A stretch of DNA of 64,000 nucleotides. It comes from an uncultured Candidatus Saccharibacteria bacterium. GTDB taxonomy: Bacteria; Patescibacteriota; Dojkabacteria; SC72. Positions 16,017 through 38,545 of this stretch are shown here, in pieces (position 1 is the first letter of the stretch; each line of letters starts with the position of its first letter). The DNA lies in assembly GCA_964405015.1 (NCBI GenBank), contig CAYOME010000001.1, positions 77,611-141,610 on the forward strand. Direction: 5' to 3'. The notes beneath the pieces are model-generated. The model was given only the letters and a program-made list of their open reading frames with translations. It did no database searches and was not told where the DNA came from. Position numbers and translations under genes: made by a program.

Positions 16017-16094
16017 GGTGGCTATAGCTCAATTGGTTAGAGCATCGGTTTGTGGAACCGAGGGTTGTGGGTTCAAGTCCCATTAGCCACCCCA
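16017..16094 (+). tRNA. tRNA-His (anticodon GTG), with encoded G-1 and encoded CCA
   Basis: A cloverleaf was built by hand. The acceptor stem is GTGGCTA/TAGCCAC with G-1:C73. D-arm is GCTC...GAGC and the anticodon stem is TCGGT/ACCGA with loop TTGTGGA. The T-arm is GTGGG-TTCAAGT-CCCAT, and the 3' end is CCA. Confidence 0.9.
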
Positions 16095-17576
16095 TTCTTG
16101 AGTTTTATTCAAATCGTATATCAGGTTAAACGGACTTTTCAGCTCTACATAGAGTTTTTTGTCGTCTACTTCAAGGTTCGAGGAAAGCATTCCTAGGAGT
16201 TGTCGTTTTCTTTCAATTTTCGAACTTTCAAATATTTCCCAAGCTCTTGATGTTATAGAAATTAGGTCTGTAACAACCTTTCCGTAGTTTATACTTGCAT
16301 CAAAGTATCTGTTCTTCTTTTCTTGTAACGACTCTTGTTCATCCTTCAATGACATTGCTTTTTTATCGTATATATCCTGTGTAATACTCTTCTTCAATGC
16401 AAAGTCCAGTAAAGTATCTAACTCTTTATCAAGTTCCTTTAAGCGTTTATCTATCCTTTCAACCTGTTCATCTTCAAATTTTCTTTTTTCTTTACTTATC
16501 CTGTTAATATCCCCAATGATTTCATCCATATATTCTGGAGGGATGACTAGTCCCTCCAAATAACTTTTGAGTTGCTCTAAAAGTATCTTTTCTGATACAT
16601 TCATATTTCCGCACTCTTCTTTTGAAGTGTTACATTGAGCATAGTTATTACCCTTTGTAGTGTATGTAGAAAACATCTTTCCACACTTCTTACATCTTAA
16701 TAGCCCTTTGAATATGTATTCCTTATCTCGATACCTTTCTGCATATCTAGATTTACCATCCTTAACCTCTTGGCATACATCAAACAGTTCTTTTGAAATG
16801 ATAGTTCCAAAATTATGAGGGTAATTAGTCTCTTTTATCCTGTATATTCCATAGTAGATAGGGTCTTTGAGCATTCTTTCAATATGAGATGTTGAAATAG
16901 GTCTCTCAATTCCACCTTTACCTTTTGTGGTTAATCCTTTTTCTCGCATTAGCTTTGCAAGTTTTTTGAAAGAGTATGTGCCTGTTGAATATAGTTCAAA
17001 GGCTTCTTTTACAAGTGGAGCTTTCTCTATGTCTAAAACCCCTTTAGAGCGTTCCTTACCGCTTATATTAACTCTTTGGTTAAGATACCCAACAGGAAGT
17101 TTCCCAATAGGTCTGCCTTGTGCTAGGTTTTCTTCTAGAGCCTTCCTAGTATTGTCGCTAACATACATACAATACATTTTTGCGCCCATAATAGACATAT
17201 CGTATCTTATCCAACTATCTGTTTTGGATTTACTGTCTATTACTAAATTTTCAGAAACGAAGTGTAAAATGACTTTACCATCTCGAATATTCTCATCAAG
17301 ATACACTTGTTCCTTGAAACCTCTTTGGAATCTATCAACTCTATCTGTAATTATTGCTAACGGCTCTTTTCCTGTCTGTTCGATAGCGTCATCTACAATC
17401 TTTAGGAATTTCTTTCTTTCGCCTCTAGTAGAGCTTTCTACTATTTGATAAGGCTCGTGGAGTAACTCAAAGTTCTTATCTTTGATATAATTATCTAACC
17501 TTCGGAGTTGTGCTTCTAGGGATAAACCATCTTCTTGGTCTCTAGAAGACACTCTAGCTATGATTATTGCTTTCAT
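16083..17576 (-). CDS. Large serine recombinase (integrase) 1
   Basis: N-terminal resolvase domain 'AIIIARVSSRDQ' with the catalytic Ser, a recombinase domain, a Cys-rich zinc ribbon (CKKCGK...C..C) and a C-terminal coiled coil. The 3' end overlaps tRNA-His by 12 nt. Confidence 0.9.
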   Translation of the reverse strand: MKAIIIARVSSRDQEDGLSLEAQLRRLDNYIKDKNFELLHEPYQIVESSTRGERKKFLKIVDDAIEQTGKEPLAIITDRVDRFQRGFKEQVYLDENIRDGKVILHFVSENLVIDSKSKTDSWIRYDMSIMGAKMYCMYVSDNTRKALEENLAQGRPIGKLPVGYLNQRVNISGKERSKGVLDIEKAPLVKEAFELYSTGTYSFKKLAKLMREKGLTTKGKGGIERPISTSHIERMLKDPIYYGIYRIKETNYPHNFGTIISKELFDVCQEVKDGKSRYAERYRDKEYIFKGLLRCKKCGKMFSTYTTKGNNYAQCNTSKEECGNMNVSEKILLEQLKSYLEGLVIPPEYMDEIIGDINRISKEKRKFEDEQVERIDKRLKELDKELDTLLDFALKKSITQDIYDKKAMSLKDEQESLQEKKNRYFDASINYGKVVTDLISITSRAWEIFESSKIERKRQLLGMLSSNLEVDDKKLYVELKSPFNLIYDLNKTQEWGG

Positions 17577-20061
17577 CAGTGTAATTCATTCTAAAACTTA
17601 TTCTATTTTCATAATTATCTTGCTTGACTAATTCGTAATAGAATTTATCATTCAGCTTTGCCTTCACTACACCTTCAGCTTCTAATCTTTCTATGGACAT
17701 TTCATTGATAAAATTGAATAAGTCTCCTTTATACAATGTGTCTTTGTTGCCTTCTAAATGCTCACCTTTGCTTTCAACAATATAGACAAAATCAAGTTTT
17801 CCATCCTCATCCTTCTTTGCTACCACAAAGTCAGGTCTAACCTTATCTTTTTGCCATCCTTGAATTGCATACCAGCCCTTACTTGCTCTATTTCTAACCC
17901 ACCAAATGGTGTTTTTTTGTCTTTCTAAATGCTTCGCGACATCAAGCTCTAATCCGTTTATGCTTGTAATATCAAAGTCTTCATATAGGTAATACTTGTA
18001 TGGGTTGTGCGGATAATCTTTGATTTTATCTTGCTCTGGTAATCTGAAACCAATTTCCTTGTCGCTAACTGCTATTACAAGTGTTTTGTCATCAACCATC
18101 CTATTAAATATCTCTTTTTCTTGGACTCTTTTGATATTTTCAAATGCTTTGATAATTTCAGAAATGATAAAACCATTATATTTACCTAAATCTTTTTCGT
18201 CTTTTACTTTCTTGATAAGTAACTTAAACAACTTTTCTGAAATATATCTAGATACAAAGGCATTTTCTATATAGTCATTTAATCTTCTTGTTAAGTATTC
18301 TGTATCGAAATGAACATCACTAAACCTTACTTCACTGCTCATACTCTCTGTGATAGCTCCTTCATCCATACCAACCTTAATAAGTGTTGTTTCAAATGTC
18401 TCATTGCCAATTAAAGGAATAATACCATCTGTTATAGTTTCCAAATCAACTCCTTCATAATCAATCTTTGGCTTTATATCTACACTATAGTTAAACTCTC
18501 TGTATAAACCATTCTTCTCTTTTATTAGCCATAAAGGAAGATACAAACTTTCAGGATACTTCTCTTTTAGCTCTCTCTTAATCTTCACGACCTTTGTTAC
18601 TGATTCACTTGTTTCAGTTTCTGTATTGATACTGTATTTGGCTAAATCATCAAGTCCTTCGTTCTTAAATCCATTCTTGATTGTAGTTAGAATATTTTGA
18701 GTATGTCCGTTACAGTAATAAATATAGCTCTCGTCTAGGATTGGAGTTCCAGTCTTCTTGCCAAATGGTTGTCTTAAGACTCTTCCTACTAACTGGGTTA
18801 CGCTTGTATTTGAATTTACATTAGGGATAATTCCCAAAATATATGCAAACGGACAATCCCAACCTTCTTTTAGAGCATCTTTAGTTATTATGTATCTGAT
18901 AGGGCATTCTCTCGAAAGAAGGTCTATATTTTCAATATCATTTACACTACTTGTTTTTATAGCGATTTCTTCATCGGGAACACCTATGTCCTTTAGATAT
19001 TCTTTAATATCTTCACTATGCACAAAACCTTTTCCTCTCTGCTCTTTACCAGTTCTTTCTACTTGTATCAAGGCTATTGGTCTTATGTATTGTCCTGTGT
19101 TACTGTCATAATCTTTAGCTACTTTCTCTATCTTCTCTCTATAATCCTTAATCTCTTTCGTCATTGTTTGCCAATCTTCATTGCTAGTTGGAGCAATTAT
19201 GTTCATATCCAGCTTAACCATTTCTGCATCTTTTAGCTCTTGTCCTGTTACAGAAACCAATACATTCATTCCTGCCTTTGGAGTTGCTGAAAAACCTACA
19301 ACCATAGAAGGATTTAATCCATTAACAGTTTCAATTGCCTTTGGTGAGAATACTTTGTGTATTTCATCAATGATAATAAGAGGTCTTGTCAACCTTAAGA
19401 CATTTCCTAAACTTGTTTTAACCTGTGGCATAAAAGAATTAACACCTTGAAAGACATCAAGATTAGGAACTTTTTCTAATAGCTCGTGATGTAAGTCATA
19501 TCTGTTATCTTGTGGAAAGAAAGAGTTGTATGAGCCACTATCCATAAACACTTTGAGGCTTTCTTTTGTAGTTCTATTTACTGATTGAATCATAAGCATA
19601 AGAACTACAAGGTTTTCTTCTACATCTTCCGCTCTTAATTCCTGATTCTTTTCTACAATAAGAGTATGTCCTGCACTTGCTTGGTCTAGTAGTTGTCTAT
19701 ATGGGTCTGCTTTATCTCTTAACCTTTCTACTGTTTGAGAGTAGATAATTTCAGATGGAACTATCCATACAACAAGTCCTGTTTTTCTTTTAGCAAATAT
19801 GTCTTGATACTGTCTTATTGTATCTACTGCCAAGAGCGTTTTACCGCCCCCTGTAGGAACTTTAATACACAGTCGAGGGTAGAACTCATTTAGACCATTT
19901 CTATCCATATCTGGGACTCTAGAGAGTCCTACCTTATTGAATGCTAGTTGAACCCAAGCGTCTGGGTCAACATCCTTCAACAAGCTTCTTACTTCAGATG
20001 CTGTTTCTAGGTAATCTTTGAGCTTTTTAGCTACTTTTGTTTGATATGGCTTGAATATCAT
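17554..20061 (-). CDS. res: Type III restriction enzyme, Res subunit
   Basis: SF2 helicase motifs: Walker A 'PTGGGKT' and DEAH-box 'IIIDEIHK'. ~835 aa. Sits immediately downstream of mod with a 2-nt gap. Confidence 0.85.
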   Translation of the reverse strand: MIFKPYQTKVAKKLKDYLETASEVRSLLKDVDPDAWVQLAFNKVGLSRVPDMDRNGLNEFYPRLCIKVPTGGGKTLLAVDTIRQYQDIFAKRKTGLVVWIVPSEIIYSQTVERLRDKADPYRQLLDQASAGHTLIVEKNQELRAEDVEENLVVLMLMIQSVNRTTKESLKVFMDSGSYNSFFPQDNRYDLHHELLEKVPNLDVFQGVNSFMPQVKTSLGNVLRLTRPLIIIDEIHKVFSPKAIETVNGLNPSMVVGFSATPKAGMNVLVSVTGQELKDAEMVKLDMNIIAPTSNEDWQTMTKEIKDYREKIEKVAKDYDSNTGQYIRPIALIQVERTGKEQRGKGFVHSEDIKEYLKDIGVPDEEIAIKTSSVNDIENIDLLSRECPIRYIITKDALKEGWDCPFAYILGIIPNVNSNTSVTQLVGRVLRQPFGKKTGTPILDESYIYYCNGHTQNILTTIKNGFKNEGLDDLAKYSINTETETSESVTKVVKIKRELKEKYPESLYLPLWLIKEKNGLYREFNYSVDIKPKIDYEGVDLETITDGIIPLIGNETFETTLIKVGMDEGAITESMSSEVRFSDVHFDTEYLTRRLNDYIENAFVSRYISEKLFKLLIKKVKDEKDLGKYNGFIISEIIKAFENIKRVQEKEIFNRMVDDKTLVIAVSDKEIGFRLPEQDKIKDYPHNPYKYYLYEDFDITSINGLELDVAKHLERQKNTIWWVRNRASKGWYAIQGWQKDKVRPDFVVAKKDEDGKLDFVYIVESKGEHLEGNKDTLYKGDLFNFINEMSIERLEAEGVVKAKLNDKFYYELVKQDNYENRISFRMNYTDESNNHS

Positions 20062-20063
20062 CG

Positions 20064-21647
20064 CTATTTTTCTCTTTCAAATAGGTTATACGGAATACTT
20101 ACGAACTTGATATTGAATTGCTCCAAGTATTCATCATCCATAAAACAAGCAGGTGCATATACAATCTTTTTAGTCTCATTCCCTTCGGAAATTTCTTTAG
20201 CCCATTCAAAGGTTATAGCCATCTTCTTAAGTTCTTCCATATCAGGAGTGTAGAGTAGGTATACTTCTGTGTGGTCTACTTTTCCTGCTAGATATTTCTT
20301 TTCATCTATATCTTTGTCTTTTGGTGATTGTCCTGTTGCAAGGTAATACACATATTTCGCTAATTGTTTATATGTAGGCAATTGTCCTGATAGTATCGTT
20401 TCAGCATCTATTGGTTGTCCAACTCTTCTATATTCAAAACCAATATCTTTATTTGTTAATTTCTTCTCAATTACTTTTACAACTCTCTCTCTTGTAATAT
20501 CTCTTGCAATATTCTTCTTTGGCTCCTTTTCACTGTTTTCAGGCATTTGAATAAGGATAAATTTTCTATTACCTTCGTCTTCTTCATTTAACTCTAAAAC
20601 TGCTTGTGCTGTAGTTCCTGAACCTGCAAAAGCATCTAGAATAATGCCATCTTTATTTGGCGATAAACTAATTAAATGTTTAAGTAAAGTAACTGGTTTT
20701 GGGTTCTCAAACAGACTTTCCTCGCCAAGTAACTCTCGTAAATCACGGCTTGCTGAATCTGTTGTTCCATATAAATCGAGCAAATTGGGTTGAGCAGAAA
20801 GGCTGTCTTCTTCTTCGAAATCGTATATTTTTAATCGAACAATTCCATCGTCACCTTTTACAAAACGACCCTTCTCTTCAAGGGCTAAAGCTTTATCTTT
20901 GCCTATTTGCCATCTTTTCCCTCTGCGTGGCTTTTGTCCCAGTATCTCGAATTGCATAGAGTCCCTTTTATAGCTTCCAGTGTTTTTCTTCTCTATAACA
21001 CTTAATCTATAATTACCCTCTTCATCATCGTATGGATATTCCCTTGTTTCAGAACTTCTTACCCTTGGGTTCAACTTTGCTTTTGTAGTTTTGGAATAGC
21101 ATAAAATATACTCCGTAAGAGAGCTAACCTCTGCACCTGTTACATTGGATGTTGTTCCTTTCTTCTTCCATAGAAAGGTTGCCTTAAAATTTTCATCAGT
21201 AAAAATTTCATCCATAATGTCTCGAAGGCGGTGTATTTCGTTATCGTCGAGACTAATAAAAATCACCCCACTTTCAGAGAGCAACTCCCTCATAAGTTTT
21301 AATCTTGGAGTCATCATAGATAACCATTTATCGTGTCTTGTTAAATCATCAGAACCTACTTCTTTACCTATCCATTCCTTTACCAAAGGGCTGTTTACAT
21401 TGTCGTTGTAAACCCAGCCCTCATTTCCTGTGTTGTAAGGCGGGTCTATATAGATACAATCAACTTTCCCTGTGTATTGTGGTAACAAGCTCTTCAACGC
21501 GGGCAAATTATCACCTTCAATAATCAAGTTTCCATCTGCTTTATCCTGTTTATATGAGAGTTTTTCATCTAAATCTAAAGTATGGTATGGAACTGACATA
21601 TGATGATTCCATATTATGTTTTTACCCTTAAATTGTAGAGTTGCCAT
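20064..21647 (-). CDS. mod: Type III restriction-modification methyltransferase, Mod subunit (N6-adenine, beta class)
   Basis: Motif IV 'IYIDPPYNTG' and AdoMet motif 'FAGSGTTAQA'; the order is mod-res, as in Type III systems. Confidence 0.9.
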   Translation of the reverse strand: MATLQFKGKNIIWNHHMSVPYHTLDLDEKLSYKQDKADGNLIIEGDNLPALKSLLPQYTGKVDCIYIDPPYNTGNEGWVYNDNVNSPLVKEWIGKEVGSDDLTRHDKWLSMMTPRLKLMRELLSESGVIFISLDDNEIHRLRDIMDEIFTDENFKATFLWKKKGTTSNVTGAEVSSLTEYILCYSKTTKAKLNPRVRSSETREYPYDDEEGNYRLSVIEKKNTGSYKRDSMQFEILGQKPRRGKRWQIGKDKALALEEKGRFVKGDDGIVRLKIYDFEEEDSLSAQPNLLDLYGTTDSASRDLRELLGEESLFENPKPVTLLKHLISLSPNKDGIILDAFAGSGTTAQAVLELNEEDEGNRKFILIQMPENSEKEPKKNIARDITRERVVKVIEKKLTNKDIGFEYRRVGQPIDAETILSGQLPTYKQLAKYVYYLATGQSPKDKDIDEKKYLAGKVDHTEVYLLYTPDMEELKKMAITFEWAKEISEGNETKKIVYAPACFMDDEYLEQFNIKFVSIPYNLFEREK

Positions 21648-21843
21648 ATTTTTTACTTTTTTCCAAAAAATTATTTAGGTCTTGGACATCTATTCTGTAT
21701 TGTTTACCGACTTTATAAGCAGTTAGCTTACCTGCTTTTACCCATCTAAATACAGTCAAATAGGATATTTTTAATAATTCAGCGATTTCATCTATTGTGT
21801 AGAATTGTGTGGCAGTTTTTTCTTGGTTATTCATCTTTATCAT
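21628..21843 (-). CDS. Excisionase/AlpA-family helix-turn-helix protein, a putative recombination directionality factor or R-M controller
   Basis: 71 aa; 'YTIDEIAELLKISYLTVFRWVKAGKLTAYKVGKQYRI' matches the HTH_17 excisionase-family HTH. Overlaps the mod start by 20 nt. Confidence 0.7.
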   Translation of the reverse strand: MIKMNNQEKTATQFYTIDEIAELLKISYLTVFRWVKAGKLTAYKVGKQYRIDVQDLNNFLEKSKKYGNSTI

Positions 21844-21883
21844 TATTTAACATTTTATATAAATATTCAAGAGATATGGAAAA

Positions 21884-23029
21884 TTATTTATGAACTACTC
21901 CTGTTAATTCTCTAGGTATAGTAACAAATAGGTTAAATTTGGATAATTGCTCATCAATATCATTGATAATATATGCCCTGTTATCCTCAACCTTTAGATT
22001 CTTAAGGAGTTTTTTGTAATTGCTCCATTTGTAACTGTCCTTTCCATACCAACCCATTGTGCTTCTTAATGCTTGAATCCCTCTAGTAGATATAATCCCT
22101 TGCATAAAAGATGTATTTATTAACTGTCTCTCTGATAGTTGTGGGTTTAGATTTTTAATAGATATCATCTTCTCGTAAAAATCCTCAGGCTTCCAAGTGA
22201 TACTTACATATTTATTTTTTATCTCTTTATTCCAAAAACTCGATAACATTGCTTGTGATAGCTTCCTACTGAATAGCTCTTTGAAGGTAAGTGGTGTTTC
22301 AGAATACTCAGGAGCGTAGCTCTGAATCTTTCTTTTTATTGCTTTCTGCCCAGTCATTCTAAACTCAAAACGCAGATAGTTATTATTAGGTAACTCATCA
22401 AGGAGATTAAGTTGTGTATATACTTGTTTATCTATACTCCTATCTTCGCTTATTTTACCTTGCTCTAATTCCCTTACTTTGTCATAAATAGCAAATTCAC
22501 TATCCTTATTATGTATATGTATTATTTGACCACCATTTTTGAATTGGTTCTCTGAGAAATCCTGCTTTAGATTGGTATCCAAAGCTTTCTTAAGCTGATT
22601 TAATACCATAGGACAGTTCAAGCCATCAGATAGCAGTATATTCTTAGAGAAGTGTATACCAACAACCTTAGAATCGATTAGACGCCCTCTAGAGATATGA
22701 AATTGATGCATCTTAAGTTTTAATTCAAGTTCATCAATGATTGATTCAAAATCATATTCACACACCTCTTGAAAATTGTTCTTGTAGAGTAGTTTAGGTA
22801 TTGAGAATTGAATATTTAAGCTAATATCTAATTCATTACGATACCTTCTGTAGAGAGTGTAAATAGGCACATATATACCTAGTTTTCTTTCTATCTCACT
22901 CGGATTTCGAGTATAAAATCTATAACCTCTGTCTGTTGTAAAAACATTCATAGCAGAGGGATTAAATTGTTCTAAATTGCCTATATCCATCTTTGTTGCT
23001 GGTATGGATAGAGTTATTGTGTCTATCAT
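21884..23029 (-). CDS. Hypothetical protein of the island core, weakly Rep_trans-like (a possible replication initiator)
   Basis: 381 aa. The N-terminus 'IDTITLSIP' and the internal 'RFEFRMTGQKA' recall rolling-circle Rep_trans proteins, but the resemblance is weak. Confidence 0.35.
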   Translation of the reverse strand: MIDTITLSIPATKMDIGNLEQFNPSAMNVFTTDRGYRFYTRNPSEIERKLGIYVPIYTLYRRYRNELDISLNIQFSIPKLLYKNNFQEVCEYDFESIIDELELKLKMHQFHISRGRLIDSKVVGIHFSKNILLSDGLNCPMVLNQLKKALDTNLKQDFSENQFKNGGQIIHIHNKDSEFAIYDKVRELEQGKISEDRSIDKQVYTQLNLLDELPNNNYLRFEFRMTGQKAIKRKIQSYAPEYSETPLTFKELFSRKLSQAMLSSFWNKEIKNKYVSITWKPEDFYEKMISIKNLNPQLSERQLINTSFMQGIISTRGIQALRSTMGWYGKDSYKWSNYKKLLKNLKVEDNRAYIINDIDEQLSKFNLFVTIPRELTGVVHK

Positions 23030-23291
23030 TCTTTTTCAATACTTCTTTTAATCTTTTATTTACTGCTTTCTCTATCGCTTGCCCTGATTCTTTGTTGATA
23101 GGGTAGTAGATATTGAAATTCTTCTCTCCAACCTTCCTTGTTGGATATACAAGTCGATATGATTCTTCTTCTAATCGCTTTATAACACCAATATTCCCAA
23201 GATAGATTGCATCTCCAATTACCAAACTTGCAAACGCTACTAATCCCTCTTTTGGCTTTACCAAATCAATACTTATTTCACTTATTTTCAT
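22962..23291 (-). CDS. SpoVG-like nucleic-acid-binding protein
   Basis: 'LVAFASLVIGDAIYLGNIGVIKRLEEESYRLVYPTRKVGEKNFNIYYPINKESGQAIEKAV' aligns with the conserved SpoVG core (KAxASITLDxxFVVxDIRVIxGxxGLFVAMPS...DIAHPINxxxRxxIQDAV). ~100 aa. Confidence 0.6.
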   Translation of the reverse strand: MKISEISIDLVKPKEGLVAFASLVIGDAIYLGNIGVIKRLEEESYRLVYPTRKVGEKNFNIYYPINKESGQAIEKAVNKRLKEVLKKNDRHNNSIHTSNKDGYRQFRTI

Positions 23292-23546
23292 TTACCTATA
23301 GCTTTAATTTAATATTCTCCTGTTCTATTTCATCTAAAAGAACAACAAAGTTAATTAGCTTCTCTATTTCGAAAGATTGTTCTGGAGATGTTTTAATAGT
23401 TGACTTATTTTCTATCAGTTTCTTCCATTTCTTATACTTTTGTTCTTTTTTGATATTTTCCATCATCAAGTAGATTCTATGATGACAGCTATAACCCTGT
23501 CGTAAAACAGGGATAAAATGGGATTTAATGGGATAGTTTGGAACTG

Positions 23547-24194
23547 TTACAATGTTACAGGGTTTTTGAATTTGATAGTGCTCTTTTCTGGATTAATGCT
23601 ATCTTCGTGGATATCAAAAAAAGTATCCTTCAGACCAGCTCTGAAACCCCATCTATCTGTAATCTTTTGGAATTTATCACTAATCACAATTCCTAATTGT
23701 TTTTCAAGTTCTTCCTTTTTATATATTGTATTTGGGTTATCATATAACCATTTGAATATACTTTCATTATCACGACCGAATTGCGGCTTAGAGAGTAATA
23801 TCTTTCCGTTTAATCTAATATTCCTATCTGATTTATACTCAACAAAAAAGTGATTGTTTTCAATTGTATTCTGGATAGAGTCGACCACATTAAGTTCCGA
23901 AGTAGCTTGAGCTATCAATTTTAAAAAATAATCTTTGTCTTTTACCTTTATATTATACCGAGCAGGAATAGGGGGTGGGAAATAACCTTCAAAGGGATTA
24001 AAAATTTCAAGTATTTCTAATTTACCATCCCTTTCAAATTGGTATAGGATAGAAAGTGCCTCATCATATTTAATATCTTTGATATGTTCACATCCAAAAT
24101 CTAATGTAGGATTTTCATCGGAAAGAACGAGCTTTGTAGCATCTATAATTGCAATAGCAAACTGTATTTTCTTTTCCTCGTAATTCATCTTCAA
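23547..24194 (-). CDS. Hypothetical protein (island cargo)
   Basis: 215-aa ORF; no recognisable motif. Confidence 0.4.
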   Translation of the reverse strand: MKMNYEEKKIQFAIAIIDATKLVLSDENPTLDFGCEHIKDIKYDEALSILYQFERDGKLEILEIFNPFEGYFPPPIPARYNIKVKDKDYFLKLIAQATSELNVVDSIQNTIENNHFFVEYKSDRNIRLNGKILLSKPQFGRDNESIFKWLYDNPNTIYKKEELEKQLGIVISDKFQKITDRWGFRAGLKDTFFDIHEDSINPEKSTIKFKNPVTL

Positions 24195-30827: not shown

Positions 30828-31289
30828 CTAATATAATGCTCCTTGAATTACTTTAAAATATTTACCTCTATTCCTGTGATATTGGGGAAATTCTTTCTCT
30901 AAGTTTTCTACAATTTCCTTAAGGTTATTATCAACCTTTCTCCAGCAATCTAGTTTATCCTTTTGACATAGTATTTTTTCTTCATCACCAGAGATTCTAT
31001 TAGTAAACCAGTAAACTTTGTGTCTAAAATCGATAGCATCTGTTCTCAGGTCTTCCCAATTTACAACCTTCATAAACTTTAATCTATAGAATATATCTCT
31101 CTCCAAGACTCTATCAAAGTGTTCAATTAGTAAAGACGTATCACCACTTCTACAAAGGGTAGATAATATAAATACATTTCCATCAAATATCGTAGATAGT
31201 ATATCTAGAAATTCTTTTAGGTATGGCATTTGTTTACCATCTTTTATTAATATGACATTATCAATATCTATATATGCTCTCATAATCAT
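30828..31289 (-). CDS. Small HAD-like hydrolase (possible nucleotidase)
   Basis: N-terminal 'AYIDIDNVIL' matches HAD motif I (DxDx[TV]), with 'ILSTL' and 'GDEE' as candidate motifs II and IV. Only 153 aa. A 3-nt gap separates it from the hydrolase. Confidence 0.35.
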   Translation of the reverse strand: MIMRAYIDIDNVILIKDGKQMPYLKEFLDILSTIFDGNVFILSTLCRSGDTSLLIEHFDRVLERDIFYRLKFMKVVNWEDLRTDAIDFRHKVYWFTNRISGDEEKILCQKDKLDCWRKVDNNLKEIVENLEKEFPQYHRNRGKYFKVIQGALY

Positions 31290-31325
31290 ATGATTATAAA
31301 TGATCTGTGATTCTATACAGAAGCT

Positions 31326-31829
31326 TTACTCCTTAAATAATCCTCTCCTTTGACCTTCTTCTACTCCATATCCAATTCTTACTTCAAGCCTAGAATCTAA
31401 CTGCTTTTTTAATTCTCTGTAGGAATCAATCATCATTTTATATTCAATAAAAGATATTTCTTCTTTTTTATCTTTAGCCTCCTTGAGGACTGTAATTAGT
31501 GCAGTTAACACTTGTATATTTTTCTCAAACAAGTCTAAGTATTGTTTTAAGAGAACATCCTCTGGGAAATCTTTTCGAGATTGTATTTTCTCTAAGCTTT
31601 GTTTACATACCAAAAGATCATTCAAACAATCTTCGGATTTATCCTCATTTTTATTAAGCATTAGTTGCAAAACGGATTTGTCTTTTTGGAAGTATACCCT
31701 ATCTATCTCATTAAAAATTTTGAATACCTGAAAAGAATCTACTATTGCTTGTGTGTAAGCCTCTTTATCGTCTGACATATAAACTTCTGACCAAGTTATA
31801 TATAAATTGTTTGTGAGTATTTGAGACAA
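31326..31829 (-). CDS. Hypothetical helical protein; the start codon is uncertain (TTG at 31829 or ATG at 31778)
   Basis: The 167-aa ORF in the track begins at a TTG; the first ATG would give 150 aa. First gene of a three-gene minus-strand operon. Confidence 0.4.
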   Translation of the reverse strand: MSQILTNNLYITWSEVYMSDDKEAYTQAIVDSFQVFKIFNEIDRVYFQKDKSVLQLMLNKNEDKSEDCLNDLLVCKQSLEKIQSRKDFPEDVLLKQYLDLFEKNIQVLTALITVLKEAKDKKEEISFIEYKMMIDSYRELKKQLDSRLEVRIGYGVEEGQRRGLFKE

Positions 31830-31831
31830 GT

Positions 31832-31950
31832 GGTCTCCCGCTCACAGGTAGGTATCGCTACTCTACCTACTAGGGTTTCCCCTAGTAACCAGGTCAGTGA
31901 TTGCAAGACGGAAGACCGCCTATAACACTGACCTGGATTTAATTTTCTTT
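31832..31950. other. GC-rich structured element of unknown function: three perfect hairpins, a possible pseudoknot and a T-rich tail
   Basis: H1 is GTAGGTA-(9 nt)-TACCTAC at 31848-31870. H2 is TAGGG-TTTC-CCCTA at 31871-31884. H3 is CCAGGTCAGTG-(26 nt)-CACTGACCTGG at 31889-31936. The 5' GGUCUCC (31832-31838) can pair with GGAAGACC (31910-31917) in the H3 loop. H3 is followed by ATTTAATTTTCTTT on the + strand. Local GC is far above the ~30% background. Confidence 0.5.
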
Positions 31951-32023
31951 ACCATGCCTAATAAATAGGTTTAGGTAACTAAGATAATATTATTATGAGT
32001 TTGATAATTTTACAAATGCATAA

Positions 32024-33901
32024 TTAGAATCTATATACAATGTTCTTTTTTGCCTTTCTTTGACCACTGAAATCAAGAAGCATTTTTTCGAAATTCTCAT
32101 TACTTTCTTTTAACTTTTTTTGTTTTTTATCATAATAAAGAGTATCTTCAACAAACCCTTTAATTTCACTTGATACTAACTTAGTTGTGTCTTGAGGACA
32201 AACAGACAACAATTCTAATAGCATAGAAAATACTAAATTACTGACAAAGAAATAATATGGTATTAACTCGTTATTAAAACCTACTTCTAAATGATCCGCT
32301 CCGTTGTGTATAATCTTTGAGCGATATGAATAAGCTTTGCTATATCTTTTATTAAAATTCTGAAAATTTAAGCCTAAAGACTTAATTATTTTAGAATGAT
32401 TTTTAAAGAGCTCTTTATTTTGATAATTTATTGAATGTTCGTATTCTAAAGCATTACGCATATTTGAATTTTTAAATTCAGGAACTTTGTTGATTATCTC
32501 AATTATCTTTTTAAACTCTAGGTCTCCTTCGCCTTTTCTCCTAGAAGGAGTAAAATATGCTCCGAGTTTATCTATAATTCCCCACAGCTCTACGTAGGAG
32601 GATGCTAAAGAATGGGGTTGCTTAGAATCACGGTAATCCCTCAACAAGCCTTTTATGAAAAGCCTGAAGTTCTTACCTTTTCTATGAAGATTTGTTATTG
32701 ATGGATTTAGATATTTTGCATACTCAAAACTATACAACGAATTATAGGATCTTCCTTTATGACTATTATAAATGTAATTCCTCTCTGAAAAAATCGCGTT
32801 TCTATTAAATAACGATAAAATCAAAGATATCTCTTCAAGAAATTCTAACGGTTGTTCAACTTTTTGGGAATTTAATTCTAATGTATGTGTCCAAATCATT
32901 CTCCCCTCCGATGGAGGAAATATTTCCTCTTTAATCTCAGCTGGAATCCCAAGGGAGATATCTACAGATCTCTTAGAGGTCTTAGTCGGTTTATAAAAAA
33001 ATCTCATATCTTGATCATAAGTGAGATTCTTAACAATCCTAAATCGAGATGCGGAGATATAAGGAAAGCCATCGATCTCAAAGTTGTAAAGTTTATATAG
33101 CAATATTTTACTTTTCGAATCAAGACCTCTATCCTTTATATTTATTAGCAATCCAGTTGACAAATCAGACTTTAAAAAAGTATCTTTTATAGAGATAAAT
33201 CCACCTTTGTATGAATACCTTTCTTCCAATAATTTTAACAACCTTTCTGAAAATATATAGAATTCACCTAAAAATATGTTAACAGCTTTGAAAAGTTCAG
33301 GAATAGGTGAATTGTCTCTTGGTATAATACTAATCTTTTTCGTTCCATCTTCTTCTATAGATGTTTGCGCTTTTGTCATGTTTAAATACCCTTTTTGAAA
33401 CCTGTTCAACAAAATTTGTATTTGCTGTTGATTCTCAGTTAACAGAAAAAGCTTCAAGTATTCTGCAATTGTTGTATCTCTTAGCGCTAGCTCGTTAATA
33501 ATCTCTTCAACCTGAATTTCTTCATCTTTGACACCCAAATCAAAGAAATAAGCAATAAAATTTAACATACTATATTTTATTGTGTAAATGTGGTTGATCA
33601 GATCTAACAAAAGGAAACCTTTGACGAAGTCTTTGCTATACATCTCATTAGAAAGGGGTAGTTCGCCATTTATATGTTTAACTGAAAAATTCAAATCTTT
33701 TATTCGATCACGTAAATAAATAATTCTTTGTAGAGAGGCTTGATTACGAACAAACTTGTTAATGTTTAGTTTTTCATGAATGCTAACTCCTGAATTTAAT
33801 GGATCCTCTGTTGCAAACTGCGATACAGTAGATTGTATCTTATCCCATATTTCTAATATTTTTTCCGGATCTTCTGTAACACTTAGTTTATTATGTTCCA
33901 A
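32024..33901 (-). CDS. Hypothetical protein with a C-terminal Rx4H (HEPN-like) motif
   Basis: 625 aa, mostly helical. 'YRSKIIHNGADH' near the C-terminus fits the HEPN Rx4-6H signature. No other recognisable domain. Last gene of the MmeI-like operon. Confidence 0.4.
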   Translation of the reverse strand: MEHNKLSVTEDPEKILEIWDKIQSTVSQFATEDPLNSGVSIHEKLNINKFVRNQASLQRIIYLRDRIKDLNFSVKHINGELPLSNEMYSKDFVKGFLLLDLINHIYTIKYSMLNFIAYFFDLGVKDEEIQVEEIINELALRDTTIAEYLKLFLLTENQQQIQILLNRFQKGYLNMTKAQTSIEEDGTKKISIIPRDNSPIPELFKAVNIFLGEFYIFSERLLKLLEERYSYKGGFISIKDTFLKSDLSTGLLINIKDRGLDSKSKILLYKLYNFEIDGFPYISASRFRIVKNLTYDQDMRFFYKPTKTSKRSVDISLGIPAEIKEEIFPPSEGRMIWTHTLELNSQKVEQPLEFLEEISLILSLFNRNAIFSERNYIYNSHKGRSYNSLYSFEYAKYLNPSITNLHRKGKNFRLFIKGLLRDYRDSKQPHSLASSYVELWGIIDKLGAYFTPSRRKGEGDLEFKKIIEIINKVPEFKNSNMRNALEYEHSINYQNKELFKNHSKIIKSLGLNFQNFNKRYSKAYSYRSKIIHNGADHLEVGFNNELIPYYFFVSNLVFSMLLELLSVCPQDTTKLVSSEIKGFVEDTLYYDKKQKKLKESNENFEKMLLDFSGQRKAKKNIVYRF

Positions 33902-33922
33902 TGCTTAATTATTATGTTAATT

Positions 33923-34597
33923 TTATTCTGAATTTTCTGGCCATAATTTTGGCATAGATTCAGGAGCACGAATTTGCCAAAATGTATTCGGAATACTAAG
34001 ATTCTTATCATCGTCTTCATGATAAAAAGTGATATTTTTATAGGGATCAAATGCATTAAGTCCATATTGAGAACATAGCAATATTCCAAGCGCAGCAACA
34101 GAGAACACTGCATTTTCCAGGTTCGCCCAATAAAATTTAGAGTCTCTATTATGTTTTACTTGATTATATACATAATACCAGTCTAACCATTCTCCATTAT
34201 CGCAGAACTTCCAAACATCAGAATATCCTGAACAGCTCTGCCATGTCATATAAGGAGATAAATTCGCACCATATTGTCCTTCTATTTTCCAATCAGCTAA
34301 AAGGGGAGAATAAAAACAATAATCATAAAGCTCGAGTTTATTTGCTGATTTAAAATAAGTTTCAATATTGGAATTCTTTATCTCTTCATCAGTTGAATTA
34401 TTCTTCTTTAATATCTGGCGAGAAACATTTTCAAATTCAGTCCCACATCTGAGAATTATTTCATAAAAACGATGAGAGTAGGTTTGCTTGTTTTGATCAA
34501 CAGGTTCTATATAATCAAAAGTTTTTAAAAGGTCACTCTCTAAAAGGTTGTATGCTTTGCAATTAGAAAACCTTCTATCCACTTCCAGTCTATTCAT
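33923..34597 (-). CDS. Hypothetical protein (Trp/Tyr/Cys-rich)
   Basis: 224 aa with no recognised motif; a 21-nt gap separates it from the next gene. Confidence 0.45.
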   Translation of the reverse strand: MNRLEVDRRFSNCKAYNLLESDLLKTFDYIEPVDQNKQTYSHRFYEIILRCGTEFENVSRQILKKNNSTDEEIKNSNIETYFKSANKLELYDYCFYSPLLADWKIEGQYGANLSPYMTWQSCSGYSDVWKFCDNGEWLDWYYVYNQVKHNRDSKFYWANLENAVFSVAALGILLCSQYGLNAFDPYKNITFYHEDDDKNLSIPNTFWQIRAPESMPKLWPENSE

Positions 34598-34636
34598 GGC
34601 CTTTTATTACATTAATTTAGTCATCCATTACGTTAA

Positions 34637-37600
34637 TTAGAAAGCCACAGTGTCAATTTCTTTGATTATTTTATCAGTTTCTCTAAGAACTATTGTTATC
34701 ATGGAATAGTGTTCAATATCATCAGGACTTAATTCTCTCCCTTTCCTATCCATCAACCATTTCTGAGCTGGTTGATATCCACCTATATAGAAATTCCAAG
34801 CTACTTCGGATACATTTCCGAAACATTGAGTAGAGTTGACATATATCTTTCCATCCTCAAACTTTGTCCTTTCAACAACATTATTTCCTTCTCCTAGGTA
34901 TGATACCTCGTATGGGTCTATATTCTTGTGTTCGAGTAGATGATATTTGATAAGTTCATTTCCTAATTTAGTCAATTTATCAAATGTCTCCCGGTCTTTA
35001 GGATATGGAATTCTAGGATAATCAATTTTTAAAAATTCTTGAAATTTCTCTCTATATTTTGAACTATTAAGAACAGCGTAAGTATACCTAAGAATCTCTT
35101 CTGGAGTTATTTTGCCAATGTGAGACTCTATCTTTTCAATGATACCTTCGTTTAAGTTAGCTTTCCTCACATCTTCACCCTCGGTAAAAGTATAGAGTGG
35201 AAATATTTGCTCTGCACCTTGCATACCTGGCCGAGACCAATATCTTCTGTCGACAATTCGATTAGAGATAAAACAAGGGGAGCTTCGAGATTCGTCAAAA
35301 CCTCTTTTCACAATAAGACCTACATTATTTCTCAACATATACTTCATAACGTTATATCTGCCATTGCATACAAAGCCATTCTGTTTACCGGTATAGAAGG
35401 TCTTACGAATATCAAAGGGTCTATATAAGATATCAACAAAATTAGTATATTCACCGATATTTTGAAGGATGTCTGCCTTTGCTCTGTTGATTTTCCAATC
35501 TCGTGAATCCTTCGTTTTATATTTTAAGGCAATTTCGTTTTCCGACAGATCGGCAAAATCATCAACAACATTCCGGATTTCTTGATCTGTAAATTGAATT
35601 GCTATCGAATCCCTAACAGTTTCAACACCAGAGACAGATTGAATAAATAAACCATCTATAGGAATATATTCATCGTAAATTGACTTATTCGTAAAATCTT
35701 TTTTAACAAAATAAAAATTTGGTTTAGTATAGTCAAGCTTAGAATACTCAATCTTATCAAATTCATTTGATAATCCCTCAAATTTCTTTTTTCTCAATCC
35801 AAATAGATCTTTATGATAAACACTTGCTAAGTTTGTTTTATCATTTCCAACTTTAACAAAAATGTTAATAGAAACACCTTGTTGGATATCAAAAACATTC
35901 TCATCCCTTGAACCATCTGGTGCAACTTCCTTCTTTTTTGAGTTTCCATGCAAGTCTAGTATATAAATATTATCAAATGTCTCTAAAAGGTGCTTTCGCA
36001 TTTGCCTATGGGTGATACCATCCAAAAATGAATTATTTGTAATCATTGCCACAATTCCACTACCATTCTTCTCAACTAATGATTCTGCAAACCTTATAAA
36101 CTTTATATAATCATCATCTAGATTTATTTTTTTCTCATTTAAATCTTGTTTGTATACTTTAATTAAATTCTGAATCCAATCTCCTTTATTTTGTGAACTA
36201 ACACTATATGGAGGGTTTCCTAATATAACCATTATGGGTTTGTCTTTTTTAATCTCAGAAGCTTCTTTAGACTCTTGAGATATACTATCAGCTAAACCAA
36301 AGCCTTCGAACATATCACCAATTGTGTTTCCTTCTTCCAGAGAATTAGTTAGGTAGATTCCTAATCTTCTGTTGTTAAAGTATTTGAAACCCATTTCTTT
36401 TAACAACATACTCATCTTCAGATGAGCAATGGTATATGGAGCAATCATTATTTCAAATCCAAATAACCTCGGAAGAACTTCATGTAATACATAGCTTCCC
36501 CAATTTCCAGCTTGTTTTTGTCTTCTCTCGTGTATTATCTTGATAACTTCCGTTAAAAAAGTTCCTGTTCCTGTAGCAGGGTCTAATACTTGAACTACAT
36601 GTCCTTTTTCATTCTTGGAGCTGTTCGCAAGTCCTCCTGTGAGCTTAAAATCATGTTCTAGTATATGGTCTACACTTTTTACAATGAATTGAACAACTGG
36701 AAGTGGGGTATAGTAAGCTCCAAATTCTTTTCTCTTCTTACTATCATACTCTTGTAGAAAATCCTCATAGAAGTGTATTACAGGGTCTTTAGATCCTTTC
36801 TCCGTGCCGTAATAATTACTGATGAGTTTAGAGATATCTGAATGAGAAAATACTCTACAAAGCTCATCAACGATACTATCCAATCTGTCATCAAAATCAG
36901 CTCCTGCTATATGGTCGAAGAAATGTCTTAGTAGTGGGTTTGAAGCTGGAACTAAATCCCTAGCTTCTGACCTAGTAAAAGTATCAGGAGATGTATCGTG
37001 GAATCTTGCAACAAACAAGCCGTAGACTAGAGTTTGTGCATACATGTCTGCGAAATCATCGGTTGACATATCATGTATGAGTTGTCTTTTCATGGTCTCG
37101 TAGACTTTATAGATACTTCGCTTCTCTTTTTCAGGACTATTAAGCATCTCTCTTGCATTCTCTCTAATACGATATGCTTTTCCACCCATTATCTTAGCCA
37201 GATGAGAACCAGATTTAATTGCTTCTTTATGAGATTCCGTAAATTGGATTAATGTTTTTCTTAATAGCTCAAAGTTTTCTGGATTGTATGATAGGGTTCT
37301 TTCTTTTTTATCGTATGAAGCAATAGAAATAGGCTCAACGTATTTAATTCCGTTCCTGTAGAATCTAAATTCTAAATAATCTGTTAATATGAGATTGTCA
37401 TATCCATAATATCGCGTAAGTTGTTCAGATTTCTCAATCTTATCAAGTGATACTCCAATATCTTTTACTTCTACATAAAGTAGGGGAACACTTCCTTTTG
37501 ATAAAACAAAGTCTGGCTTATTACCACCTACAGCCTTTCCATCGTGATCAATGTTTGTAACTTTTATTTCGCTAAATATTTCTTTTAGAAAGTTTTCGAA

Positions 37601-37708
37601 TGGTGTCCGGTATCCATATTCCGATGTTTGTGTTTGTGAATACTTTTCAGATACTTCGTTTAAGTAGCGATTCAATATCTCGTAGGTTGTTTTTAAAGTT
37701 GTATCCAT
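34637..37708 (-). CDS. MmeI-family Type IIL restriction-modification enzyme (fused PD-ExK endonuclease, gamma-class N6-adenine methyltransferase and target-recognition domain)
   Basis: The N-terminal 'PDFVLSKGSVPLLYVEVKDIGVSLDK' parallels the MmeI nuclease motif 'VDLFWPGILLIEMKSRGKDLDK'. 'GAYYTPLPVV' matches MmeI 'GAHYTSEANI'. Motif IV 'ILGNPPYSV' matches MmeI 'ILGNPPFVG'. 1023 aa. Confidence 0.85.
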   Translation of the reverse strand: MDTTLKTTYEILNRYLNEVSEKYSQTQTSEYGYRTPFENFLKEIFSEIKVTNIDHDGKAVGGNKPDFVLSKGSVPLLYVEVKDIGVSLDKIEKSEQLTRYYGYDNLILTDYLEFRFYRNGIKYVEPISIASYDKKERTLSYNPENFELLRKTLIQFTESHKEAIKSGSHLAKIMGGKAYRIRENAREMLNSPEKEKRSIYKVYETMKRQLIHDMSTDDFADMYAQTLVYGLFVARFHDTSPDTFTRSEARDLVPASNPLLRHFFDHIAGADFDDRLDSIVDELCRVFSHSDISKLISNYYGTEKGSKDPVIHFYEDFLQEYDSKKRKEFGAYYTPLPVVQFIVKSVDHILEHDFKLTGGLANSSKNEKGHVVQVLDPATGTGTFLTEVIKIIHERRQKQAGNWGSYVLHEVLPRLFGFEIMIAPYTIAHLKMSMLLKEMGFKYFNNRRLGIYLTNSLEEGNTIGDMFEGFGLADSISQESKEASEIKKDKPIMVILGNPPYSVSSQNKGDWIQNLIKVYKQDLNEKKINLDDDYIKFIRFAESLVEKNGSGIVAMITNNSFLDGITHRQMRKHLLETFDNIYILDLHGNSKKKEVAPDGSRDENVFDIQQGVSINIFVKVGNDKTNLASVYHKDLFGLRKKKFEGLSNEFDKIEYSKLDYTKPNFYFVKKDFTNKSIYDEYIPIDGLFIQSVSGVETVRDSIAIQFTDQEIRNVVDDFADLSENEIALKYKTKDSRDWKINRAKADILQNIGEYTNFVDILYRPFDIRKTFYTGKQNGFVCNGRYNVMKYMLRNNVGLIVKRGFDESRSSPCFISNRIVDRRYWSRPGMQGAEQIFPLYTFTEGEDVRKANLNEGIIEKIESHIGKITPEEILRYTYAVLNSSKYREKFQEFLKIDYPRIPYPKDRETFDKLTKLGNELIKYHLLEHKNIDPYEVSYLGEGNNVVERTKFEDGKIYVNSTQCFGNVSEVAWNFYIGGYQPAQKWLMDRKGRELSPDDIEHYSMITIVLRETDKIIKEIDTVAF

Positions 37709-37782
37709 ATACTGTATCTGCTTAGTCTCGATAGACGTTACTCATCTGACCCATTATACTTCGAAATCGTCTCTATTTAAAA

Positions 37783-38250
37783 CTAATATTTTTTATATGT
37801 CGTTATGGTTATATCTGTCTTCTCAATTTCTATAGTTTCAACCATATCACATTTAATACCGTATGCCTTCTTTATACGGTTCACTTCTTCTTTTTGAGTT
37901 TTCCTTCTAGTTATCTTTTTAATAACCTTGATAGGTTCTGCAATCGCAAACTCGACAAGCTTTTCAATTAAGATTCCCTTCACCAGATCAGGAATACCCT
38001 CCCAAATGTTGAGTATTATTTCTTGAATAGATGCTCCAGCACCTCTTTCTTCATGTATGTATCTTCTCTCAACTACATAATAAGAGTTCGTTAATTCAAA
38101 GCCCTCACGCGACTCTAAATACTCTTCGAGGGCATTAAAATCAAATTGATCAGGTAGGTCAACTTCAATTACCTCGACAAGCTCTCCTTCCCCGGGGTTA
38201 TCATCAGTCCTAAGATATCTCTTAATAATGAAATTGTTGATATCACTCAT
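37783..38250 (-). CDS. Hypothetical protein, first gene of the MmeI-like operon
   Basis: 155-aa acidic protein; 74-nt gap to the MmeI-like gene. Confidence 0.45.
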   Translation of the reverse strand: MSDINNFIIKRYLRTDDNPGEGELVEVIEVDLPDQFDFNALEEYLESREGFELTNSYYVVERRYIHEERGAGASIQEIILNIWEGIPDLVKGILIEKLVEFAIAEPIKVIKKITRRKTQKEEVNRIKKAYGIKCDMVETIEIEKTDITITTYKKY

Positions 38251-38252
38251 TA

Positions 38253-38267
38253 AGTTTGAGGGAACTT
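38253..38267 (+). repeat. 15-mer TTTGAGGGAACTTAA, copy 2
   Basis: Identical to 5342-5356; lies just upstream of the start of the minus-strand 155-aa gene, inside the island. Confidence 0.5.
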
Positions 38268-38536
38268 AAGTTATTTATGTATTGTATACGAAAGCTTCAC
38301 TTTGTTAAACTCCATAGAAGCATGTTCAACTAATACAAATTTCACCCTTTAGAATATTATGTTCACAACAAATCCTCCTAACATAGAAGGATATTAAAAT
38401 TTATAATCTATAAAATACTTTACTTCACTATTCAGATCTTTAGATAAGATATCATTTAGCTGTTTTATAGCCTTCTTGAAGTTCTCTACTGTCAGTTTAG
38501 ACAGTAATTCAAAATGTTCACGTTGATAGATCTTCT

Positions 38537-38545
38537 CCACCCCAT
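38537..38545 (+). repeat. Candidate attR core: a direct repeat of the tRNA-His 3' end (CCACCCCAT)
   Basis: Exact 9-mer copy of 16087-16095 (the tRNA 3' terminus). It is GC-rich in an AT-rich intergenic region and sits where the accessory cargo ends. Confidence 0.4.

Follow-up and report, generated by a model that had tools for sequence, protein, structure and literature searches.

How a 22.45-kb island came to adjoin a tRNA-His gene in the chromosome of a Candidatus Dojkabacteria bacterium (WS6; Candidate Phyla Radiation, CPR) is the question raised by the stretch of DNA analysed here, which comprises 64,000 nucleotides (nt) of assembly GCA_964405015.1 (contig CAYOME010000001.1, positions 77,611 to 141,610) and is referred to as the window. 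The island, which encodes two large serine recombinases (LSRs), very probably consists of two independent integrative elements in tandem, E1 (16095-25946, 9.85 kb) and E2 (25947-38544, 12.6 kb), each inserted by its own LSR into the ACCCCA end of tRNA-His; the boundaries are uncertain by the length of the core, approximately 6 nt. A preliminary description of the window had proposed tandem elements at tRNA-His, each with its own serine recombinase, and the proposal is borne out by homology breakpoints, recurrent junctions and relatives of the elements. Three cores and the homology breakpoints are present in the island, recurrence at tRNA-His and tandem arrays are found elsewhere, and one contig contains a junction of the attP type. 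The features that define the elements and their attachment sites are:

16018-16094, plus strand: tRNA-His(gtg) with encoded CCA (ARAGORN; Rfam tRNA, 70.9 bits), the 3' half of which serves as the left attachment arm (B)
16087-16095: attL1 core CCACCCCAT, the junction of host tRNA and E1, containing the minimal common core ACCCCA (16089-16094)
16083-17576, minus strand: LSR1, a large serine recombinase of 497 amino acids (aa), with Pfam domains Resolvase, Recombinase and Zn_ribbon_recom
25900-25951: right terminal (P) arm of E1 and hybrid core CCGACCCCAG (25941-25950), the junction of E1 and E2, located by homology breakpoints
25919-27571, minus strand: LSR2, a second large serine recombinase of 549-550 aa, with Pfam Resolvase (2.5e-25) and a weak zinc ribbon
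38359-38545: right terminal region and P arm of E2, ending in the core CCACCCCAT (38537-38545), which is attR2; located by homology to contig L012 and by junction contexts

Direct copies of ACCCCA, which corresponds to the discriminator and CCA end of tRNA-His, are present at 16089-16094, 25941-25946 and 38539-38544, and the longer 9-nt sequence CCACCCCAT has two exact copies in the window, at 16087 and 38537. Breakpoints of homology (blastn) in related contigs, designated L002, L003 and so on, indicate that these are the three ACCCCA-containing junctions of the island. L004, in which E1 is not followed by LSR2, matches the window with 93.7% identity over 21201-25950, where homology ends; the LSR2 homology of L013 ends at 25941; and the match of L012 1339-1525 to 38359-38545 (90.9%) ends exactly at 38545. 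The second recombinase does mark a division of the island into two blocks, as first proposed, but what separates the blocks is the hybrid core (25941-25950), within the 3' end of the LSR2 open reading frame (ORF), rather than position 25919.

When every ACCCCA context of the window and the related loci is listed in tRNA orientation, four arms recur. P'1, the 3' end of LSR1 (ttcttgagttttattcaaatcg), directly follows tRNA-His in the window, L004, L006, L007, L011 and L133. P1, the right end of E1 (caaggttcataataacgtcatataaccg-ACCCCA and variants), terminates the element in L004, L006, L003, L133 and L136, and the P arm of the window's E1 is also found in L004, L011, L012, L003, L133, L136 and L141. 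P'2, the 3' end of LSR2, follows tRNA-His in L013 and follows P1 in the window and L011/L012, and P2, the right end of E2 (aaaatgttcacgttgatagatcttctcc-ACCCCA), terminates the element in the window, L012 and L013. Over at least ten loci, the arms recombine as predicted, with a 6-9-nt core present at all junctions. The island adjoins the 3' end of a tRNA gene, has an integrase at its edge and is flanked by direct repeats, as is expected of tRNA-associated islands, and the small core common to attP and attB, with hybrid attL and attR sites after integration, is as expected of serine integrases. The P arms resemble the 3' half of the tRNA, in register, across the inner 13 nt. An outer GGTTCA-like motif is located further out in the P arms than in the B arm, the best alignment being shifted by +6 bp for E1 and +5 bp for E2, with scores for each arm no higher than the 99th percentile of random sequence. 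In a model for serine integrases, the zinc ribbon domain (ZD) motif of attP is displaced outward by approximately 5 bp relative to the attB half-sites (PMC3783163).

The preliminary description also supposed that the element supplies a new end to the tRNA, of which little remains: crossover occurs in the last 6-9 nt (ACCCCA). The 3' strand of the acceptor stem is host-specific (TTAGCC here, CATCTTCC in others) and pairs in each case with its own 5' strand, so at most the last 6-9 nt of the tRNA can be supplied by the element and the tRNA is intact. Window positions 16015-16094 (80 nt, including the whole of tRNA-His) are identical to the tRNA of L013. The 26 nt of the tRNA-His 3' half are identical in at least 119 genome stretches, mostly of Gammaproteobacteria, and including Pasteurellaceae, Colwellia/Thalassotalea and Saccharibacteria, which means that the B arm is widely conserved beyond the host lineage. 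The same 26 nt proved too unspecific as a probe for related loci, of which only L020, L066 and L047 (with a decayed LSR remnant) were useful.

The overlap of the first recombinase gene with the 3' end of the tRNA was correctly recognized at the outset: the LSR1 ORF continues across the core to a stop 12 nt inside tRNA-His, so that its last codons and stop codon are host tRNA DNA. Likewise, the LSR2 ORF, on the same strand and with the coordinates originally given, passes through the hybrid core into E1. Because both reading frames cross the core, the C-termini of both proteins depend on the junction. LSR1 homologues are alike as far as a (E/K)WG motif and diverge after it; proteins of the LSR1 type have 497 aa at the window's tRNA, 515 aa where they run antisense through other tRNA-His variants, and 513, 524 or 526 aa at element-element or attP junctions. 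The identity between LSR1 and LSR2 is only 22% (BLASTP), and thus two lineages share one core. Both ORFs are full length and have the context of the catalytic serine, ARVSS in LSR1 (S10, invariant in A3) and ARKST in LSR2, within matches to PF00239 (Resolvase) of 2.8e-13 and 2.5e-25, respectively. LSR1 also exceeds the cut-offs for PF07508 and PF13408.

Among annotated phage LSRs, identity does not exceed 33% to LSR1 or 26% to LSR2. Distant relatives of LSR1 are found in IMG/VR contigs with 21-48% identity (mostly 28-36%), and several with 31-35% identity abut antisense tRNA genes or are located within approximately 150 nt of them: tRNA-Glu in MT836653.1 (L160 7583-9156), and tRNAs for Pro, Arg and Gln in IMG/VR contigs (the loci with such tRNA-adjacent relatives being L160, L161, L164, L165, L183, L174 and L185). 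From these gene neighbourhoods, the LSR1 clade may usually target tRNA 3' ends, and tRNA targeting looks like a trait of the clade. The usual targets of classical serine integrases are protein-coding genes or intergenic sites, and tRNA 3' ends are the usual territory of tyrosine integrases.

Both types of element recur at tRNA-His in related genomes, singly and in arrays. Homologues with named sources assign the lineage to Candidatus Dojkabacteria (WS6). LSR1 homologues (55-89% identity) are antisense to tRNA-His and overlap it in L004, L005, L006, L007, L011 and L133, as does the tRNA-proximal LSR of L136 (506 aa), and an LSR2 homologue (57%) in L013 overlaps tRNA-His by 22 nt, also antisense. 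E1 is alone between direct cores in L006 (8.4 kb) and L133 (6.6 kb), and E2 is alone in L013 (approximately 8.1 kb). In L011/L012, E1 and E2 occur together, with an E1 similar to that of the window and an E2 that has different cargo. Two elements of the E1 type are in tandem in L136 (Dojkabacteria assembly GCA_050950225.1), and two E1-type modules are present in L003, a contig that includes neither a tRNA nor the end of the second element. The left flank of the window, from an M16 peptidase through GlmS or an ABC transporter, is syntenic in L013, L020 and L133, the gene order of L013 matching from M16 peptidase to GlmS, and different content follows tRNA-His in each; the same site is variably occupied in these genomes.

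Traces of what may be older insertions were encountered at the same site. L066, from a Patescibacteria metagenome-assembled genome, was considered as an empty site and rejected, as it carries an insert of approximately 1.5 kb and an LSR1 remnant: tRNA-His is followed by a PIG-L deacetylase-like ORF and a 133-aa ORF, and then by a 71-nt remnant of the LSR1 3' end that includes the core (87% identity; positions 5179-5249 and 6749-6853), a decayed array. The immediate flank of the L066 tRNA, TATCC, is the same as the attR2 flank of the window. LSR1-like fragments of approximately 100 aa (32% identity) adjoin the distal core in L013 (3239-3544) and, in similar form, tRNA-His in L047 (1051-1371); these are probably remnants of further, older elements.

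If E1 and E2 excise separately, particular junctions are predicted. The E1 circle would join ...AACGTCATATAACCGACCCCA to TTCTTGAGTTTTATTC..., and the E2 circle would join ...GATAGATCTTCTCCACCCCA to GATAATATTTTCATAG...; loss of E1 would leave ...CCCATTAGCCACCCCA followed by GATAATATTTTC..., loss of E2 would leave ...CATATAACCGACCCCA followed by TATCCTAATATC..., and the empty attB would read ...CCCATTAGCCACCCCA followed by TATCCTAATATCTC... (the source samples are SRR8925774, SRR8925775 and SRR8925805). A scan of metagenomes found a JGI contig, L141, in which the right end of E1 is joined through the core to the 3' end of LSR1, which is the predicted succession of E1 P arm, core and P' arm. The candidate circles listed in the preliminary description were the whole island and the second block; the E1-only circle (16.09 kb with 25.95 kb), which is the one matched by L141, was missing from that list. 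The other two of the three metagenome matches to the attP1 pattern (L139 and L140) are chance matches. The attP1 pattern has no match in IMG/VR, and the 17 IMG/VR matches to the attP2 pattern, none with protein similarity to the window, were dismissed as chance. The contig of P0003/L138, which encodes the 513-aa form of LSR1, ends 90 nt beyond the junction and was set aside as proof of a circle, since circle and array are undecidable there. Three Logan samples that cover the internal junction of E1 and E2 (L008-L010) are 100% identical to the window at that place; none spans the tRNA or all three junctions. Another Logan contig, L002 (SRR8925805), begins 4 nt to the left of the attR2 core (L002 1-13 corresponds to window 38533-38545), and this assembly break may reflect strain heterogeneity at the junction.

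E1 consists of a backbone (a ~60-aa ORF and other small ORFs, a SpoVG-like protein, a 381-aa protein of the Rep_trans fold, an HTH_17 protein and the LSR) and two slots for cargo. Its genes other than LSR1 are:

17554-20061, minus strand: Type III restriction subunit (res); Pfam ResIII, PADLOC REase_III 3.7e-145
20064-21647, minus strand: Type III modification methyltransferase (mod); Pfam N6_N4_Mtase 2.4e-40
21628-21843, minus strand: HTH_17 excisionase-family protein of 71 aa; Pfam HTH_17 3.4e-14, PHROG excisionase families
21884-23029, minus strand: 381-aa Rep_trans-fold protein, a candidate rolling-circle initiator or MOB_T-like relaxase
22962-23291, minus strand: SpoVG-like backbone protein, present in all E1-type loci; Pfam SpoVG 6.7e-9
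23296-24194, minus strand: backbone ORFs of 57 aa and 215 aa, conserved in L004, L007 and L011, with no family match
24480-25844: right-end cargo slot, with a 106-aa membrane protein (minus strand) and a DUF4238 protein (plus strand; Pfam DUF4238 3.2e-35)

The functions first suggested for this block, namely mod (N6_N4_Mtase), res (ResIII/REase_III), SpoVG, DUF4238 and a Rep-like protein, agree with Pfam and PADLOC and, for the last, with support for a Rep_trans fold. The 381-aa protein itself has no Pfam match, but PF05144 matches eight of 40 homologues and PF02486 one of 40, and Y182, in the motif IYDK, is invariant among the homologues. A Foldseek search of its structural model against PDB returned nothing below an E value of 1e-3, and its sequence profile has no match in PDB. 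No match to this protein was found in PLSDB plasmids or INPHARED phages, and it is nearly absent from IMG/VR. The HTH_17 protein, a candidate regulator or directionality factor, is conserved (69-98%) in L003, L004, L006, L007 and L011, including L007 with its different restriction-modification (R-M) cassette.

The right-end slot of E1 is variable: the membrane protein and DUF4238 protein have counterparts of 93-96% identity in L004 and none in L003, L006, L007 and L011, which have other genes at their ends. The second slot is directly upstream of the LSR gene and overlaps its start. It is occupied by Type III R-M genes in the window, L003, L004, L006 and L011, by NgoPII and a C5 methylase in L133 and L136, and by an N6_N4 methylase and a 385-aa protein in L007. 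In every E1 the upstream gene overlaps the start of the LSR gene, by 23 nt or 8 nt, an arrangement that is kept with three different R-M cassettes. The spacing of the window's genes was given exactly in the preliminary description: a 20-nt overlap of HTH_17 and mod, a 2-nt gap between mod and res, and a 23-nt overlap of res and LSR1. Co-transcription of the R-M genes with the integrase gene is plausible from this arrangement. In L007 (9874-10023), despite replacement of the cassette, the final 42 codons of res persist (76% identity) in a 49-aa ORF directly before the LSR gene, and the 3' end of res may hold signals needed for LSR expression. Scans for sigma-70 promoters and terminators gave results at chance level and are uninformative on the operon.

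In E2, LSR2 and conserved arms at the termini accompany cargo that varies. Little is common to E2 and its relatives other than LSR2, the arms, the family of a 153-aa protein and two conserved non-coding stretches, one of which is a LOOT RNA. The features of E2 beyond LSR2 and the arms are:

27879-29585, plus strand: 568-aa cargo protein; NCBIfam GapS1, E value 6e-10, 38.6 bits against a cut-off of 320; no Pfam or PADLOC match
29586-30125: 540-nt gap, of which 29588-29861 is 88-90% conserved in the E2 of L011 and L012 (blastn)
30126-31829, minus strand: three-gene cargo of an alpha/beta-hydrolase-like protein (232 aa, matches weak and near cut-offs), the 153-aa protein and a 167-aa protein
31851-31977, minus strand: LOOT RNA (RF03000), 57.9 bits against a gathering score of 46.4, E value 1e-8, full-length model match
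32024-38250, minus strand: Type IIG R-M operon encoding a 155-aa protein, a 1023-aa restriction enzyme-methyltransferase, a 224-aa protein and a 625-aa protein (PADLOC, Pfam)

The 568-aa protein had been labelled PD-ExK and does contain a D...ExK-like stretch (IVIETK), but the label finds no backing in the family searches, where the match to GapS1 is below threshold. GapS1 is an antiphage family, and the protein may be a distant single-gene defence protein. The gap that follows it is real, as reported; in L011 and L012, the counterpart of 29588-29861 is associated with a 130-aa gene, paralogous to the 153-aa gene of the window, and comprises approximately its first 42 codons together with the regions upstream and downstream of it. 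Approximately 300 nt of the 130-aa gene have apparently been lost in the window, and the gap is probably what remains of it. The 153-aa protein has a relative of 38% identity in both L011 and L012. The element described at first only as structured is the Rfam LOOT RNA, located between the genes of the 167-aa and 625-aa proteins, and it has a counterpart in the matching place of an E2 with different cargo (L012 3339-3466, plus strand, 43.8 bits). The operon to its right had been called MmeI-like: an R-M enzyme it does encode, and its type is IIG (PADLOC REase_MTase_IIG 1.1e-268; Pfam Type_ISP_C 4e-76, N6_Mtase and Eco57I). The 224-aa protein matches a PHROG of unknown function; apart from this, no family match was found for the 155-aa, 224-aa and 625-aa proteins. 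Most of the E2 cargo and the small ORFs of E1 could not be assigned a function with PADLOC and PHROGs. The island may be called defence-rich, as it was, on account of two R-M systems, DUF4238 and the weak GapS1-like match; the term does not extend to most of the E2 cargo, which is unannotated.

To the right of the island, 38608-43538 encodes HD, response regulator, MBOAT, DUF459/SGNH, NERD and SdpI genes, none with a tblastn match in L013, L047, L066 or L020. Beyond the arrays at tRNA-His, L013 and L047 reach homologues of the window at 45.5-55 kb, L066 of 43.5-45.3 kb, and L133 a GH3 gene. A 2223-aa ORF in the right flank (48225-54896) has homologous fragments near tRNA-His in L013 and L047. 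For a 224-aa protein encoded in the left flank, a search by exact sequence returned no record. The variable region may reach past 38545, although the tetranucleotide signature there looks native.

The preferred explanation, two elements in tandem, can be put as a mechanism. Integration would proceed by LSR-catalysed exchange of attP and attB inside the ACCCCA core, and the tRNA would be left intact because only its last few bases are exchanged. Each element could excise independently, E1 by recombination of attL1 with the hybrid junction and E2 by recombination of the hybrid junction with attR2, with the HTH_17 protein as possible regulator or directionality factor. The excised circle of E1 might be replicated or mobilised by means of the Rep_trans protein, and the R-M cassettes could act as both defence and addiction modules, in one operon with the recombinase. 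The array could have been built in either order, by insertion of E1 into a tRNA already occupied by E2 or of E2 into the right junction of E1.

The alternative that deserves most attention, although it is itself rather unlikely, is that these insertions belong to the past and the copy is now fixed, its recombinases being kept without excision activity or in another role. It accommodates the decayed remnants of L066, L013 and L047, the identity of L008-L010 to the window at the junction of E1 and E2, and the fact that the window's copy has yielded no evidence of excision. Against it stand the intact and conserved state of both LSR ORFs, Rep, HTH_17 and both sets of arms, the presence of near-identical elements in different genomes beside different tRNA-His variants, and the existence of a contig with the attP-type junction. 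It is improbable that the island is a single composite element of 22 kb that moves as a unit by recombination of attL1 with attR2, with LSR2 and the second block as cargo or a nested insertion. The longest identity of core sequence is indeed between the outermost cores, which share the 9 nt of CCACCCCAT, and the order of E1 followed by E2 is repeated in L011/L012. However, elements of each type, bounded by their own two arms, are found singly at tRNA-His (L006, L133 and L013), the E2 cargo of L011/L012 differs from that of the window while E1 is similar, and attL1 has the P' arm of LSR1 but attR2 has the P arm of LSR2, so that neither enzyme would meet its own pair of arms.

It is very improbable that the region represents defective prophages or phage satellites, whether one or two. 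LSRs are typical phage integrases, distant relatives of LSR1 are in IMG/VR, and the HTH_17 protein matches PHROG excisionase families, but PHROGs, applied to ten ORFs (E1 backbone and unassigned E2 ORFs), and Pfam, applied to every ORF of at least 80 aa, revealed no gene for capsid, terminase, tail or lysis functions. Nine of the ten ORFs scanned with PHROGs have no function-annotated match, the distribution of Rep excludes INPHARED and almost excludes IMG/VR, and the elements are only 6.6-12.6 kb. That the recombinases are instead invertases or resolvases for phase variation of the adjacent R-M systems, as their operonic arrangement with R-M genes might suggest, is hardly credible given the large C-terminal extensions of both proteins (497 and 550 aa), mod and res genes not flanked by inverted repeats, and direct cores and homology breakpoints that fit integration.

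Several observations weigh against the explanation by two independent elements. LSR2 has no match to PF07508 (Recombinase), and its match to the zinc ribbon of PF13408, at 18.5 bits, falls short of the cut-off of 25.3; both families are matched by some homologues of LSR2. LSRs are not expected to target attL or attR, and consequently the stacking of elements would require one enzyme to accept a hybrid site as a pseudo-attB. Reconstructed att sites show dyad symmetry no greater than expected by chance. Comparison with relatives, proposed from the start as a way to define attB, did reveal variable occupation of the tRNA site but found no empty site in the same species, and L020, with 1.9 kb of ORFs lacking family matches after tRNA-His, is uninformative as an empty site. 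The junction in L141 fits a head-to-tail tandem as well as an excised circle, and mobility of the window's copy is a deduction from sequence. Composition, offered as a further check, gave a divided answer: G+C content is uniform at 0.32-0.33, while the tetranucleotide signature of the island differs from those of both flanks, the strand-symmetric distance being approximately 30 between island and flanks and 10 between the flanks (an approximately threefold difference), with shifts at the island edges (16-38.5 kb).

A broader speculation, which is quite unlikely to hold, is that two unrelated LSR lineages converged on the CCA end of tRNA-His, and that each integration, excision or stacking event rewrites the C-terminal tail of the recombinase, which could thereby sense the state of integration and adjust directionality or expression; on this view, E1 would serve as a rolling-circle "R-M shuttle" specific to the CPR, its recombinase translationally coupled to the restriction system that it happens to carry.

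Among known systems, the closest functional analogue is the composite island of staphylococcal cassette chromosome elements (SCC, SCCmec) at rlmH (orfX), where the large serine recombinases are Ccr proteins (10.64898/2026.03.31.715619, 10.1101/336396). In both cases, LSR cassettes occupy the very 3' end of a conserved housekeeping gene without inactivating it, form tandem stacks delimited by short repeated cores, and bring accessory or defence genes with them. In contrast to SCC, the target here is tRNA-His rather than rlmH, the host belongs to the CPR, E1 has a Rep_trans initiator, and the core is crossed by the recombinase ORF; nothing points to orthology with Ccr, and the only sequence match in PDB is to the catalytic domain of TP901-1 (E value 8e-4). 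By analogy, the island appears to work like an SCC composite island, but it is not a member of that family. The tycheposons of Prochlorococcus are likewise small site-specific elements of tRNA genes with replication genes, cargo and tandem arrays, but 910 of 937 have tyrosine recombinases and a minority have LSRs (10.1101/2020.12.28.424599), their replication modules are primase, helicase or polymerase genes rather than Rep_trans, and they belong to a different phylum. Phage serine integrases (LI/A118, phiC31, Bxb1 and TP901-1; PMC3783163) resemble LSR1 in the set of Resolvase, Recombinase and zinc ribbon domains, and the systems have in common the short core and the location of the integrase gene beside attP; the P-arm motif, displaced outward by 5-6 bp, may conform to the ZD-motif shift model. 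Unlike the phage systems, the elements here have no phage gene content, and the LSR1 clade abuts tRNA 3' ends. Rep_trans initiators (RepD/RepDE, RepSTK1) and the MOB_T relaxases of integrative and conjugative or mobilizable elements of monoderm bacteria invite comparison with the 381-aa protein, which lacks membership in these families at the sequence level; no ori or oriT was identified.

Among the papers in the collection consulted, none combines Patescibacteria, integrative elements and serine recombinases. The locus provides defined mobile elements of Dojkabacteria (CPR) with reconstructed attP and attB, in which two orthogonal LSRs act on one 6-9-bp core, and it places an orphan LOOT RNA on an LSR mobile element of this group. 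The R-M cassettes, exchanged in a fixed slot that overlaps the start of the recombinase gene, are a natural example of R-M systems that ride on integrative elements and probably stabilise them. The att systems of LSR1 and LSR2 are candidate genetic tools for a group of organisms that has almost none. With tRNA-His as the target here and tRNAs for Pro, Arg, Gln and Glu as the apparent targets of distant relatives, an entire LSR clade may habitually act on tRNA 3' ends, and the value of the finding is mainly for the biology of CPR mobile elements, the discovery of recombinase tools and the understanding of this tRNA-targeting clade.

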